From: a virus
Taxonomy: Duplodnaviria; Caudoviricetes
Length of the DNA: 64,000 nucleotides
Reading direction: 5' to 3' (one strand)
IMG/VR virus record: IMGVR_UViG_3300037461_000646
Coordinates: 25,208-89,207 of that record
Below, one piece after another: positions 32,213-37,844 of the stretch. Below the pieces are notes generated by a model. That model saw only the letters and a program-made list of their open reading frames with translations. It had not been told where the DNA came from and ran no database searches. Every line of letters begins with the position of its first letter. The first letter of the stretch is position 1. Both the position numbers and the translations under genes were made by a program.

Positions 32213-32839
32213 TTATGCCGTTGTCGTTGTGGTGGTGGTGGTCCAGGTAGTGCCGCCAGTATCCCACAGCATACGACCATAAGGCATATTATCCCAAACT
32301 GCATTGCCGCCAGAAACTTCACTGTCGGCCCGTTTCGCCTCAAGGCGAATCGCAACCGCAGCCGGTTCTTCAGCCGCAAACTCCATTTCGATTGCAGCCG
32401 CCGCATTCGCACGGGGAAAGATGATGCCCATCACATTCGTGCCATCCGGAAAGGTATAAATCGCCTCAACGCGAATGGCAGTCGGTGCCGCGATCACGCC
32501 CAGAGGTATCGACCCCACATGTGCCGCAGAGAACGTCGCAGGGCTTAGACCACGAGCGATAGCCACGTTCTTCGGGGTAAGCTCTTTAAAAGCACACTCC
32601 AAAGCCGCAGCTTCACGCAGGGGGTAAATGGCATCCTCCAACAGAGGGAAGCCAGATTCCAGCCGGTAGTACTCGACGTTGCCAGAAAACTTGGTATTCG
32701 CCAAAGCACCAAGGCTGTCAGCAGCTTGAAGCCGGGGTACAGTCGAACCAATGTAGGTAGCAGCTAACCCCACACGAATCTGCGCCAGACCCAATGCTAC
32801 TGTGGTGGTATCTTTTGTTACCGGTCCAGTACGTGCCAT
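32213..32839 (-). CDS. Major tail (tube) protein with C-terminal poly-Thr tail
   Basis: Position and size; ends WDTGGTTWTTTTTTTTA. Confidence 0.8.
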   Translation of the reverse strand: MARTGPVTKDTTTVALGLAQIRVGLAATYIGSTVPRLQAADSLGALANTKFSGNVEYYRLESGFPLLEDAIYPLREAAALECAFKELTPKNVAIARGLSPATFSAAHVGSIPLGVIAAPTAIRVEAIYTFPDGTNVMGIIFPRANAAAAIEMEFAAEEPAAVAIRLEAKRADSEVSGGNAVWDNMPYGRMLWDTGGTTWTTTTTTTTA

Positions 32840-32855
32840 ATTGTCTCACCTCCTT

Positions 32856-33170
32856 TCATTTTTGAATCACTGCAACAGTGTCAGAAGATTCAACCTGTGG
32901 GTTGATTTCACTATCGGTTTGCACCCGATTTGCTGGAAAGTAGTTTAACACATTCCAATGGTTTGGGTAATCTCTTCGGCATTTTCGCCGCAAACACCGC
33001 ATCAGAATAGAACCGTGTATTTTCATTTCAACCGGGGTGAACATAGTACGGTCATTGGTTTTGCCAAATATGAACCGCCAACATCCATTTGGTAAACGCT
33101 CAATGAGCTTCTTGCCACACTTCTCGCACCGAAAGAACGATCTACGAATTTCATTGGGCTGTTGTGACAT
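32856..33170 (-). CDS. Small zinc-finger protein
   Basis: CEKC...CLRRKC. Confidence 0.55.
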   Translation of the reverse strand: MSQQPNEIRRSFFRCEKCGKKLIERLPNGCWRFIFGKTNDRTMFTPVEMKIHGSILMRCLRRKCRRDYPNHWNVLNYFPANRVQTDSEINPQVESSDTVAVIQK

Positions 33171-33185
33171 GATTGAGTATCCCCC

Positions 33186-33656
33186 TTAGATTTTCATTGC
33201 CACTTTCAGAATGACCGTCAGCACCTTGAATTTAGTTTCATCGGGGGCAATCATGTCGCCAGAGGGCAGAATATCCCAAACAAGCAACTTGCCCAAAAGA
33301 ACCCAAGCACCCGAATAATTGCTTTGGTAAAAATCAATTCTTTTCAAACCATCGTTCATGCTGGCATCGACCAAATAGCCCATTACTTTATCCCGCAATT
33401 GAGAAAGCTTGTAGCCCTCGCTGTCTCTGCGGGTGCAGCAATAAACGTCGATGATGATGTCTGACATGGTATCTAAAACGATGGGGCCGAAAACAATGCT
33501 GCACCACTTGTCCACCTCTTTGCCCTGTATGTTGGGGGAGCTTAGAGCCTTATCGAAAGTAACAGGCACACCCTCTGCCGTGACAAGAGCATCAACGAAG
33601 AACTTCTTGATGCTGTCTCTTAGATTCGACTCTCTGGCTGATGGGTCAAGTGACAT
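33186..33656 (-). CDS. Tail terminator-like protein
   Basis: Position before the tail tube; IIIDVYCCTR, FKVLTVILKV strands; start MSLDP overlaps upstream gene end. Confidence 0.5.
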   Translation of the reverse strand: MSLDPSARESNLRDSIKKFFVDALVTAEGVPVTFDKALSSPNIQGKEVDKWCSIVFGPIVLDTMSDIIIDVYCCTRRDSEGYKLSQLRDKVMGYLVDASMNDGLKRIDFYQSNYSGAWVLLGKLLVWDILPSGDMIAPDETKFKVLTVILKVAMKI

Positions 33657-35655: not shown

Positions 35656-36104
35656 GCAGCATCCCCCGGCTCGATGATAACCAAGTTCGTGTCTGCATAA
35701 GTAGTGTCATTGCCAAGGTCATCGTACTGAAACCCGGCTTCAATCTTCGTGCCGAACATCTCGTAGGCTTGAGCACCCGCAAATTCGGCAATGTTCTCCT
35801 CTTTTGCAGATTCAAACTGTTGATCCATGTATTGAATTAACTGCTTGTAATGGTCAAACCTGTGCTGAAGATTGATTTGCTCAAATTTGAACTTATGAGC
35901 CGATTCCGTCCACAAAAAGAAAAACAACCATCGCTTTGATCGTTCCTTCAACCATTGAATCTGAAAGTCAGTCGTGACCGGGCAAACCCAGCCCGTGTCG
36001 CGTTGAGCATTGGCTACGGCATTGTCGTAGTCGTTGCTATCGACTTTGTCCTTCAAGCCTTTAAGCTCTAACGCCAATAGCTCTTTCAGTTCGTCGGCTG
36101 TCAT
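35652..36104 (-). CDS. Head-tail adaptor (connector) protein
   Basis: Helical 150-aa protein two genes after the major capsid gene. Confidence 0.55.
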   Translation of the reverse strand: MTADELKELLALELKGLKDKVDSNDYDNAVANAQRDTGWVCPVTTDFQIQWLKERSKRWLFFFLWTESAHKFKFEQINLQHRFDHYKQLIQYMDQQFESAKEENIAEFAGAQAYEMFGTKIEAGFQYDDLGNDTTYADTNLVIIEPGDAA

Positions 36105-36442
36105 TTCTTGCGCTTGCCCCCTTTACGTTGCACCAAAAGCTTTTTCGTCGGCTTTGGGGCAGGTTCAGGTTCCACAGCTTTGGTTACGGTCTGAGTCTGA
36201 GTTTCGATCAACAACTGCTTTGCCCTGAGATCAGGGGTCTTCATTTCGGGCACAGAAACCATGTCGTAAATCTGTTGCTTGGTAAGTTTCTGCGGCATAC
36301 CGACAATGTGTACCGTGCCCGTGTTGTGAATGATTTCATCCAAGATTTCTTTTGGAAGGGGCGGCTGCATCACCGCCCCCTCCAAGAAGATTCTCTTACC
36401 AGCTTTAATGGTTTTTAGCATTTTCACGCTTTCGATATACAT
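36101..36442 (-). CDS. Hypothetical protein with basic C-terminal motif
   Basis: AAGGAGG RBS; ends KKLLVQRKGGKRKK. Confidence 0.65.
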   Translation of the reverse strand: MYIESVKMLKTIKAGKRIFLEGAVMQPPLPKEILDEIIHNTGTVHIVGMPQKLTKQQIYDMVSVPEMKTPDLRAKQLLIETQTQTVTKAVEPEPAPKPTKKLLVQRKGGKRKK

Positions 36443-36518
36443 CTTTCGATTGCCTCCTTTCAGAGTATTGCCACTACCCGAACTACCGTCACGCGGTAGT
36501 GGACGTAGTCGTCGTGCT

Positions 36519-37844
36519 TCAGGCAGTGGTCGTGGTCGTGCTGCTGCTGGAGCTCGACGTTGTGGTGCTGGTTTCGGCCTGATGAGCCGTGGTCACAACA
36601 TCAATCGTGTAAATGGCATCACGGTTGAAGAGAATGGGCAAGCCCTTGTCCTGAACGCGAATCCAGGTCACTTCGGGGTCCCACTCGTCGTAGCTATCGG
36701 TGAACTGACCGTAGGTACGATTCAGGCCAAACGGGGCCTGTTTGTACTCGGCAATCGGCTGACCATCCACCTTGGAAGCCATCATGATGAACTTGTCATC
36801 AGGAATAAACGGCTTTGCCTGGGTGACGTAGTCCTCCCCAGCTTTGTAGCTGGTCGTAGTCGGGTAATTGATCTGAACGGTGCCATTCTCGGCGTTGACG
36901 CTGAGAACAACCCGATCTTCGTAGGAGCCAGCAGAGACATCCCAAAAACGAATGGCTGCATCGGCCTCAAAGTCGGAAACATCGTCCAGGCTGATCCAGG
37001 TGGTCGAACCACCCGTGACCGCACCCGTGAGCCATGCCCGAACCTCGTACATCTCATCGTAAACGATGAAGTTGGGGATATCGAGCAAGGAGCCAATGAC
37101 CTTCGGGTTGACTGCAATCAGATTGTGCAGACCACCCGAATACAGGTTGTTTTCACCCACCATGAAATTCTGGCGTTTCAGAATGTCCCGAATGGTGGTG
37201 TCTGCGGCCAACAGCTTCAGCACATTGCTGTTGAAGAGGGCGTAATCGATGTACCCCCCGCAATCGCGCTGAAGGGCAATCTTGGCATCACGAATGTCGC
37301 CAAGAATGTCTTTGCTGCCGCCGTTGTTCCAATTGTAGGCAGAAGCCAGAGTGACACGGTGATCACTGGGAATGCCATAATCAACGCTGGCTCGGTAGCC
37401 ACCCTTAACATGGTAGCTGAAGCCGTTGTTGCACAGCATCTGAGCGAACATCCATTCTTTGCGGCGCATCGAACGGTTTTTCAGACCCGCAAGCTCACGG
37501 GCCAGTTTCGCTTCTGCACTCTGGTAGACAGCATCGGTGCCCGGTTGACGAAGATTGTTCAGAAACTCCTCATCGAAGGGCATTTTCTCTTTCCAGTAAG
37601 CAGCTTCGGCAACGTGCTGTGCAACCCCATGGGGGGAAGTCACAGGGGCCGGGGTGCCCGGTGCGACGAATGGGGTCATGCCACGACCCCCGCGCTGGGA
37701 TTCCCACCGAATAGTGCTGCTCGGAGAAGTAGAAGCCCCGAACAGATTCATGAGAAGCAGATTCGGGGGTGTCATGAACGACTGCATGAACCCCTGAAGC
37801 ACCTCAAGTCTCAGAATAGGTATATCAGAAGAACCTCTGGGCAT
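36519..37844 (-). CDS. Major capsid protein (lambda gpE-like, HK97 fold) with C-terminal Ser/Thr tail
   Basis: MTPFVAPGTPAP, P..KEKMPFD, RRKEWMFAQML, VDYGIP..H.VTL..A..W, DILGDI; AGGAGGTG RBS; ends ETSTTTSSSSSTTTTTA. Confidence 0.9.
   Translation of the reverse strand: MPRGSSDIPILRLEVLQGFMQSFMTPPNLLLMNLFGASTSPSSTIRWESQRGGRGMTPFVAPGTPAPVTSPHGVAQHVAEAAYWKEKMPFDEEFLNNLRQPGTDAVYQSAEAKLARELAGLKNRSMRRKEWMFAQMLCNNGFSYHVKGGYRASVDYGIPSDHRVTLASAYNWNNGGSKDILGDIRDAKIALQRDCGGYIDYALFNSNVLKLLAADTTIRDILKRQNFMVGENNLYSGGLHNLIAVNPKVIGSLLDIPNFIVYDEMYEVRAWLTGAVTGGSTTWISLDDVSDFEADAAIRFWDVSAGSYEDRVVLSVNAENGTVQINYPTTTSYKAGEDYVTQAKPFIPDDKFIMMASKVDGQPIAEYKQAPFGLNRTYGQFTDSYDEWDPEVTWIRVQDKGLPILFNRDAIYTIDVVTTAHQAETSTTTSSSSSSTTTTTA

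Follow-up and report, generated by a model that had tools for sequence, protein, structure and literature searches.

The 64,000-nucleotide stretch of DNA analyzed here (the window) comprises bases 25208-89207 of IMG/VR record IMGVR_UViG_3300037461_000646, a tailed phage (Caudoviricetes) whose complete genome of 89,207 bp carries direct terminal repeats. Three core virion proteins encoded in it, the major capsid protein, a neck stopper and the tail tube protein, possess C-terminal tails of 12-17 residues that consist nearly completely of Thr and Ser and terminate with Ala or Val. These tails, to which we refer as tags, are likely to serve as portable acceptors for a tag-directed O-glycosylation in the cytoplasm, a view derived from comparisons among phage genomes; through them, the phage particle is probably coated with sugars.

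C-terminal tails of the capsid, stopper and tube proteins

The three tails are not a product of chance. Among the 460 open reading frames (ORFs) of at least 50 amino acids in the whole genome, only those for capsid, stopper and tube (3/460) have tagged C-termini; their last 12 residues contain 10-11 Ser/Thr, whereas the next-best ORFs, all of them antisense, reach 7. The tags of capsid and tube (Table 1) share their ending, a Thr run followed by Ala. Since the tag-coding DNA mixes ACC, ACA, ACG and ACT with AGC, TCG and TCC codons, the Thr/Ser runs are not a simple repeat or microsatellite, and on account of this codon heterogeneity we reject an origin of the tags through slippage on simple repeats. 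A sequence-only reading of the window had drawn attention to the three tails. All the strings it gave are indeed present on the minus strand, with two corrections: the capsid tail contains six Ser instead of five, and the first run of the stopper tail contains eight Thr instead of seven.

The capsid protein was readily placed into its family (PF03864, E 2e-33, 116 bits with a cut-off of 22.9; phrog_29, E 6e-49); a phmmer search with it against the PDB returned nothing useful. The stopper and tube proteins gave no Pfam, PHROG or PDB sequence-profile match (alignment profiles against the PDB, none at E<=1), so that their identities rest on predicted folds. We predicted both structures from homologue alignments, with AF2 in the case of the stopper, and compared folds by VIA. 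The tube model (one good model of five; predicted local distance difference test score, pLDDT, 71.5) aligns over residues 9-198, the tube domain, and matches the tail tube of phage Mystique (9n71_A) with a VIA Z of 15.7 and a root-mean-square deviation of 2.9 over 175 residues. The tubes of Chi/YSD1, Bxb1 and Douge and gpV of lambda follow with Z 9-12, and all top matches are tube proteins. Its gene is located directly upstream of the chaperone genes, which are followed by that for the tape measure. Judged by its predicted fold, the 208-aa protein is a siphovirus tail tube.

The stopper model (AF2, pLDDT 84) contains tandem beta-barrels at residues 1-102 and ~96-205, both of which match the Pam3 neck, the stoppers of T1, R4C and phage 812, SPP1 gp16 and the lambda neck with Z 9.5-10.6; the gene lies between those for capsid and tail. 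The modeled fold marks the 221-aa protein as a neck stopper or head-completion protein of the SPP1 gp16 and lambda gpFII type, and the label of head-closure protein given to it in the sequence-only reading was thereby right. A neck stopper is typically present in 6-12 copies per virion. As the barrel is duplicated within a single chain of 221 residues, six copies would supply twelve barrels, and the duplication is possibly a built-in 12-to-6-fold symmetry adaptor.

In the models of both the stopper and the tube, the tags appear as low-confidence extensions past the last strand, with pLDDT values <50 at residues 210-216 and 202-208, respectively. The tails are hence predicted to be disordered beyond the folded domains; inspection of predicted structures, the check that the sequence-only reading had suggested, turned out in its favor for these two proteins. 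With regard to exposure, the C-terminus of the tube model superposes on the position at which the chain of lambda gpV passes on to its C-terminal domain, a domain that is external. Display at the C-terminus is also known for T7 gp10. In the HK97-fold coat protein of phage P22, the C-terminus faces outward and extensions are tolerated (PMC9962691); by analogy with this coat protein, the capsid tail of the phage studied here would be exposed on the outside as well.

Tags and glycosyltransferase genes among relatives of the phage

We collected 112 related loci from IMG/VR and read each homologue to its stop codon. All three proteins are tagged in relatives whose capsid is at least about 59% identical and in one further relative at 55%; tags are absent from the more remote ones. 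In these loci, the capsid, stopper and tube homologues that lack tags stop at the boundary of the fold, that is, at the tag junction: capsids with ...Y-x-L-x-V-x, about 8 residues earlier, stoppers with ...EDTR, and tubes with ...G-x-I-x-W-S/A. The tags are appendages on complete folds. Tail-less homologues, for which the sequence-only reading had proposed to look, thus exist and end exactly where the fold does. In five tagged genomes that are complete or near-complete (G000, G001, G003, G004 and G008; this phage and four relatives), the same three ORFs and no others are tagged at their C-termini, and tagged ORFs are absent from 3/3 untagged complete genomes.

In a tree of the capsid core obtained by a quick IQ-TREE search, all tagged capsids (33/33 distinct sequences, with core identities down to about 55-60%) form a single clade (Shimodaira-Hasegawa-like approximate likelihood ratio test, SH-aLRT, 99) that is nested among untagged ones. 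The tree points to one gain of the tags within the clade and no loss. Tag lengths vary considerably across it, with medians of 18 (range 14-83), 22 (11-45) and 14 (9-19) residues for capsid, stopper and tube, respectively. Despite lengths between 9 and 83 residues, the tags consist of 87-88% Thr+Ser and end mostly in Ala, otherwise in AP, AA or without any such ending. Thr codon usage, with all four codons represented, matches that of the remaining gene, and runs of identical codons have a median of 2. Given this gene-like codon usage, the short runs and the constant Thr+Ser content, we attribute the tags to selection on composition and not to slippage.

Several relatives depart from the standard set of tags. 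The capsid genes of L014/L064, L027 and L031 carry tags expanded to 60-83 Ser/Thr-rich residues, so that the brush on the head would be far longer. Additional tagged proteins are encoded at L200:4877-6277 (G002), L063:11553-11987 and L274:4293-4784 (G029); one of them is a 467-aa protein without a PHROG match, and another is a homologue of the protein encoded at 25971-26711 of the window, immediately behind the tape measure gene; in the window, this protein has no tag. In G013, capsid, stopper and tube are untagged, although a 170-aa ORF (L124:15911-16423) ends in T14-S-T4-EAV and Ser/Thr runs occur in several ORFs of the tail region.

Inside the tail module of the phage sits a glycosyltransferase (GT) gene cluster, flanked by genes for giant proteins that consist largely of Ser/Thr tracts (Table 1). 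Its enzymes lack transmembrane segments and signal peptides, as would be expected if they act in the cytoplasm, the site of virion assembly. The 319-aa GT2-family enzyme (GT2 in the following) found no sequence match in the PDB by phmmer; a weak match to the NCBIfam model for streptococcal PgfS (16.7 bits versus a cut-off of 500) was disregarded. The 241-aa protein p241 has no Pfam or NCBIfam match. Among its nearest look-alikes in the ESM Atlas is a cluster of viral proteins, 22% of which match PF00535 (Glycos_transf_2), and p241 is possibly a second, divergent GT-A enzyme.

We scored the distribution of these genes across 24 long records, 10 tagged and 14 untagged. An orthologue of GT2 occurs in 9/10 of the tagged records and in 0/14 of the untagged ones; the one tagged record without it, G002, is a linear contig that breaks off ~1 kb short of where the gene would be expected. 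The GT4 orthologue is likewise found in 9/10 tagged records, and among the untagged ones only 1/14 has a distant homologue of 30% identity; a GT4 homologue of 28-30% identity was noted in the untagged G013. The full core of GT4, GT1, methyltransferase-like protein, p241, methyltransferase and GT2 is kept in G001, G003 and G004, and GT2 orthologues also occur in G025 and G029. In G008, which retains the tags, GT2 and p241 were the only cassette members detected, and its contig encodes no giant Ser/Thr protein. The p241 gene strictly accompanies that for GT2. Tails in relatives devoid of glycosylation genes, the case that the sequence-only reading had named as speaking against its proposal, were not encountered: wherever the sequence of a tagged relative extends far enough, it includes the phage glycosyltransferase cassette.

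The GT-lacking relatives with which the same reading had wanted to compare the tails hardly exist. Other GT1/GT2-family genes are found in the majority of relatives without tags, and it is the particular combination of GT2 and p241 (plus GT4/GT1) that is missing from them. The discriminating feature is consequently this enzyme set and not glycosyltransferases as such, and the generic presence of GT1/GT2 Pfam matches, being non-discriminating, is not counted as support. Typically, as in the untagged G010-G012, G013 (L052) and G019-G021, a GT1-family gene (~690 aa) and a GT2-family gene (~240 aa) directly follow the stopper gene; this pair is a different, tag-less glycosylation module in the head-tail region.

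Tagged virion proteins outside the clade and the proposed function of the tags

A scan of viral contigs for the DNA pattern (ACN)6-GCN-TAA ('Thr6-Ala-stop') yielded at least 118 stretches. Among the matches listed, to which all counts and families in this paragraph refer, we analyzed 69 in-frame ORF ends, 28 within the clade and 41 outside. Of the non-clade ORFs, 20 cluster representatives were taken, and all of those with an annotated PHROG function (13/13) are virion-structure or head-assembly proteins. They comprise major head proteins (phrog_212, phrog_10, phrog_544), major tail or tube proteins (phrog_807, phrog_117, phrog_5102), a decoration protein (phrog_49), an adaptor (phrog_477), a tail assembly protein (phrog_1082) and a head scaffolding protein (phrog_673); in G024, another major tail protein (phrog_238) bears a tag. 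Because it is found on virion proteins of unrelated families, we regard the tag as convergent and portable.

Two of these phages serve as independent replicates, of which the second, G024, is the weaker. G025 (86 kb) shares with the phage studied here only a collinear cassette (identities of 51% for GT4, 38% for GT1, 40% for the methyltransferase-like protein, 43% for p241 and 45% for GT2) and a few early genes, and it has no structural homologue; nevertheless, the same tags terminate its adaptor (phrog_477) and one of its tail proteins (434 aa, phrog_290). By this sequence comparison, G025 appears to be the best independent replicate of the pairing of tags and cassette. In G024, an Enterococcus-type provirus, capsid and major tail proteins are tagged and no others, and an extra gene for a 343-aa protein (L277:14338-15369) is inserted between the capsid and adaptor genes. 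The cultured phage EFC-1 (NC_025453, L291), 65% identical to G024, has neither the tags nor the gene for the 343-aa protein.

These data lend themselves to the following model. During infection, the tags would be recognized by soluble, cytoplasmic glycosyltransferases of the Leloir type that are encoded in the tail module. Its core pair, GT2 and p241, would add sugars to the hydroxyl groups of the tags, either on free subunits or on assembling particles; GT4 and GT1 might then extend the glycan, which the two methyltransferases could modify further. If the C-termini of these folds point outward, as we assume, a mucin-like glycan brush on head, neck and tail would result, and the giant Ser/Thr-tract tail proteins are probably modified by the same enzymes. 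The transfer of sugars, the enzyme that initiates it, the identity of the sugar, the outward exposure of the acceptors and the benefit for the phage, be it shielding, solubility or adhesion to host or environmental glycans, are elements of the model that we infer. The portable acceptor tags proposed in the sequence-only reading are, on comparative grounds, the best-supported explanation, and they withstood the observations that this reading itself had named as decisive.

Several observations weigh against glycosylated tags. The sequence-only reading had envisaged glycans on every high-copy subunit; this does not hold, for the stopper is a low-copy protein of the neck ring, and the high-copy gpD-like decoration protein is untagged. 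The outward position of the tails in the assembled particle, in particular that of the capsid and stopper termini, is deduced from models and analogy. Within the clade, the association of tags and cassette represents a single evolutionary event, so that 9/10 versus 0/14 should not be read as 24 independent observations; moreover, the glycosyltransferases of untagged relatives suggest that such genes need not act on tags in this group of phages. Truly independent support is confined to G025 and, weakly, to G024 in comparison with EFC-1. Most independent tag-bearing records contain no homologue of GT2 or p241. Of ten such records, viewed without a matched background, 6/10 possess some GT1/GT2-family gene and 4/10 none, and no GT1/GT2-family gene was found in the complete G024, G035 and G039. 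In G024, the inserted gene gave a sub-threshold match (E 0.006) to HPAT, a GT-A peptide O-glycosyltransferase. We do not regard the pattern matches in G035 and G039 as convincing tags, one being no more than a Thr6 run on a short ORF and the other lacking an in-frame ORF end.

Could the tails act without any glycan? They might be 'entropic bristles', hydrophilic and disordered, or sticky tails rich in hydroxyl groups, and in this way prevent aggregation or mediate adhesion to host polysaccharides; the cassette would then serve the giant Ser/Thr tail proteins, the host surface or DNA. The disorder of the tails, the glycosyltransferases of untagged relatives and the independent tag-bearing genomes without a recognizable GT1/GT2 gene all fit such a scenario. 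We nevertheless consider it unlikely, since the tags and the pair of GT2 and p241 arose jointly and were never separated afterwards, G025 repeats this pairing on unrelated structural proteins, and G008 retains both without a giant Ser/Thr protein on its contig. In addition, a near-pure Thr/Ser composition suits dense O-glycosylation and would be unnecessary in a mere spacer.

We see only a slight chance that the tails are glycosylated by enzymes of the host, or by a phage enzyme other than GT2 and p241, with the mucin-like tail proteins as the true substrates of the cassette and the tags as bystanders or secondary targets. The position of the cassette among genes for giant Ser/Thr-tract proteins and the existence of tagged lineages without it would agree with this idea. 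Virion assembly is cytoplasmic, however, and general bacterial O-oligosaccharyltransferases are inactive in this compartment; furthermore, G008 and G025 combine tags with GT2 and p241 while their contigs contain few or no giant Ser/Thr proteins.

That the tails bear a different modification, namely phosphorylation, methylation or a cross-link introduced by the neighboring radical S-adenosylmethionine (SAM)/SPASM enzyme, is very improbable, although the cluster contains the gene for this enzyme and two for methyltransferases. The distribution of the radical SAM gene does not follow that of the tags: it is absent from the cassettes of G025 and G029, and homologues are present in the untagged G012 and G016, so that we rejected its product as a tag modifier. 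None of the scanned genes was seen to encode a kinase, and methyltransferases encoded beside glycosyltransferases typically modify sugars. Neutral, functionless low-complexity expansions, to which the wide variation in tag length (9-83 residues) might point, are strongly disfavored by the retention of the tag on the same three proteins in 33/33 descendants, by a codon heterogeneity that speaks against recent slippage, and by the convergent recurrence on unrelated families described above, where the annotated cases among the matches listed are virion-structure or head-assembly proteins only.

A more far-reaching proposition can be formulated, to which we give an even chance of being correct: C-terminal poly-Thr would be a general and self-sufficient glyco-tag of tailed phages, in which about 10 Thr/Ser followed by a small terminal residue, placed on any outward-facing virion protein, suffice for O-glycosylation by a small dedicated enzyme set (here GT2 and p241). 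Cassette and tags would have spread horizontally and convergently across unrelated families of capsid, tube, decoration and connector proteins in phages of very different hosts. Should this be true, mucin-like coats would be widespread among phages instead of a peculiarity of mycobacteriophages, sugar-coated phage particles would be common in nature, and they could be predicted from sequence through the presence of tags and cassette. The role of the glycan coat, whether in shielding, in colloidal stability or in adhesion to host or environmental polysaccharides, would become directly testable, and the tags would offer a simple genetic handle for the glyco-engineering of phage or protein-cage surfaces.

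Relation to known glycosylation systems and further features of the genome

To our knowledge, glycosylation of virions has been shown experimentally for a few mycobacteriophages only, in which it changed recognition by antibodies. In Che8, Corndog and Myrna, the capsid and tail tube subunits are reported to bear glycans at their C-terminal ends (Freeman et al., 2023, Cell Host Microbe 31:1216, as relayed in PMC12619734, PMC12363180 and PMC11256854). When we read the sequences, we found that the Che8 capsid ends in ...NKTGS and its major tail protein in ...YSDGS, those of Corndog end in ...PLVGS and ...IKGDS, and the stoppers of both phages are untagged. The mycobacteriophage parallel drawn in the sequence-only reading therefore stands insofar as Che8 and Corndog have a common C-terminal motif on their capsid and major tail proteins, as is the case for capsid and tube here; it does not extend to the motif itself, which is a short Gly/Asp-Ser ending, or to the enzymes. 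No similarity was detected between the cassette and the glycosyltransferases of Che8 (gp108-110) and Corndog (gp35-38), neither by BLASTP (best E 0.09) nor by phmmer (none at E<=1).

Like Che8 and Corndog, the phage studied here encodes its own glycosyltransferases (GT2, GT1, GT4 and Glyco_trans_1_2 Pfam matches at 13.2-19.7 kb of the window), and as in Corndog, where they lie inside the structural module, the genes are embedded among structural ones, in this case within the tail module. It differs from both in having a poly-Thr/Ser tag of 12-17 residues with many acceptor hydroxyls instead of a single terminal Ser, in the tagging of a third protein, the stopper, in the methyltransferases of its cassette and in the link to giant mucin-like tail proteins. 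Its host is, as far as can be told, not an actinobacterium, and the phage is known from sequence alone. Taken together, the system appears to work in the manner of the mycobacteriophage type without being a member of it. Our search of the literature brought up no publication that describes poly-Thr tags on virions.

Likenesses to cellular systems can be drawn as well. Dense, disordered Ser/Thr acceptors and a candidate initiator of the GT-A family recall the mucin-type O-glycosylation of eukaryotes (GT27). Unlike the ppGalNAc-transferases of that family, however, the 319-aa GT2 has no ricin-type lectin domain and matches GT2-family Pfam models only, here the generic PF00535 (E 1e-10), and the setting would be cytoplasmic and not that of the Golgi. 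Comparable, too, are the serine-rich repeat (SRR) adhesins (GtfA/GtfB, GT4) and the flagellins, in which soluble Leloir enzymes act on Ser/Thr in the cytoplasm before an extracellular structure is formed, as we propose here; an example is FlmG in Caulobacter (PMC7591256). The phage shares with the SRR system a GT4/GT-B enzyme, and its giant Ser/Thr-repeat proteins resemble SRR adhesins. In contrast to both systems, accessory Sec or flagellar export is not involved, the substrates would be virion proteins, and the acceptors are short terminal tags instead of internal repeats or folded surface sites. Streptococcal membrane proteins carry O-glycosylated, Ser/Thr-rich intrinsically disordered regions (PMC12041528), which are comparable as short disordered acceptors that are portable between unrelated proteins; these regions are extracytoplasmic and modified from lipid-linked donors, whereas the pathway of the phage must be cytoplasmic.

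The structural module is lambda-like and located on the minus strand of the window (Table 1); it also includes several small head-tail genes.

TABLE 1. Positions of the genes and tags discussed in the text, counted from the first nucleotide of the window.
Feature	Position	Strand	Remarks
Large terminase	41888-43840	-	Structural module
Portal	39735-41405	-	Structural module
Protease/scaffold	38588-39967	-	Structural module
Lambda-gpD-like decoration protein	37867-38562	-	High-copy, without tag
Major capsid protein, 441 aa, lambda gpE family (HK97 fold)	36519-37844	-	PF03864 (Phage_cap_E), phrog_29
Capsid tag TSTTTSSSSSSTTTTTA, after ...AE	36522-36572	-	Residues 425-441
Neck stopper/head-closure protein, 221 aa, two tandem stopper beta-barrels	34990-35655	-	Predicted fold
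Stopper tag TTTTTTTTSTTTTTV, after ...AY	34993-35037	-	Residues 207-221
Tail tube protein, 208 aa	32213-32839	-	Predicted fold and gene order
Tube tag TTWTTTTTTTTA, after ...GG	32216-32251	-	Residues 197-208
Tape measure protein, 1562 aa	26711-31399	-	After tube and chaperone genes
Tail protein, 1781 aa, internal Ser/Thr region (residues ~1497-1650)	20619-25964	-	Likely further substrate
Radical SAM/SPASM enzyme	19665-20606	-	Accessory, not tied to tags; absent from G025 and G029 cassettes
Glyco_trans_1_2 protein	18766-19713	-	Accessory, not tied to tags; absent from G025 and G029 cassettes
GT4-family (GT-B) glycosyltransferase	17458-18726	-	PF13439 and PF00534 matches
GT1-family (GT-B) glycosyltransferase	16334-17467	-	PF00534, E 7.5e-6; kept in G001, G003, G004, G025, G029
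Methyltransferase-like protein	15748-16347	-	Weak PF13489 match; kept in G001, G003, G004, G025, G029
p241, 241 aa	15032-15757	-	Co-occurs with GT2 in G001, G003, G004, G008, G025, G029
SAM methyltransferase	14185-15030	-	PF08241, E 3e-12; kept in G001, G003, G004, G029
GT2-family (GT-A) glycosyltransferase, 319 aa	13214-14173	-	Candidate tag modifier; PF00535, E 1e-10
Mucin-like Ser/Thr-tract protein, 889 aa	6048-8717	-	Likely further substrate
Giant mucin-like Ser/Thr-tract protein, 1796 aa	2-5326	-	Ser/Thr tracts; runs off the left edge of the window

Two small ORFs with Cys pairs reminiscent of zinc ribbons (34741-34923 and 32856-33170; motifs CPLC...CPHC and CEKCGKK...) lie within the head-tail connector module. 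A cultured relative of the phage was not found, the best identity being 25%. The sole genome match, a 9-kb contig binned in a metagenome-assembled genome of the Thermotogota, was not trusted as a host assignment. A protein encoded by the phage at 48489-49229 combines a PEP-CTERM motif with a weak match to a matrixin-like zinc protease, and it hints at a Gram-negative host that produces exopolysaccharides.

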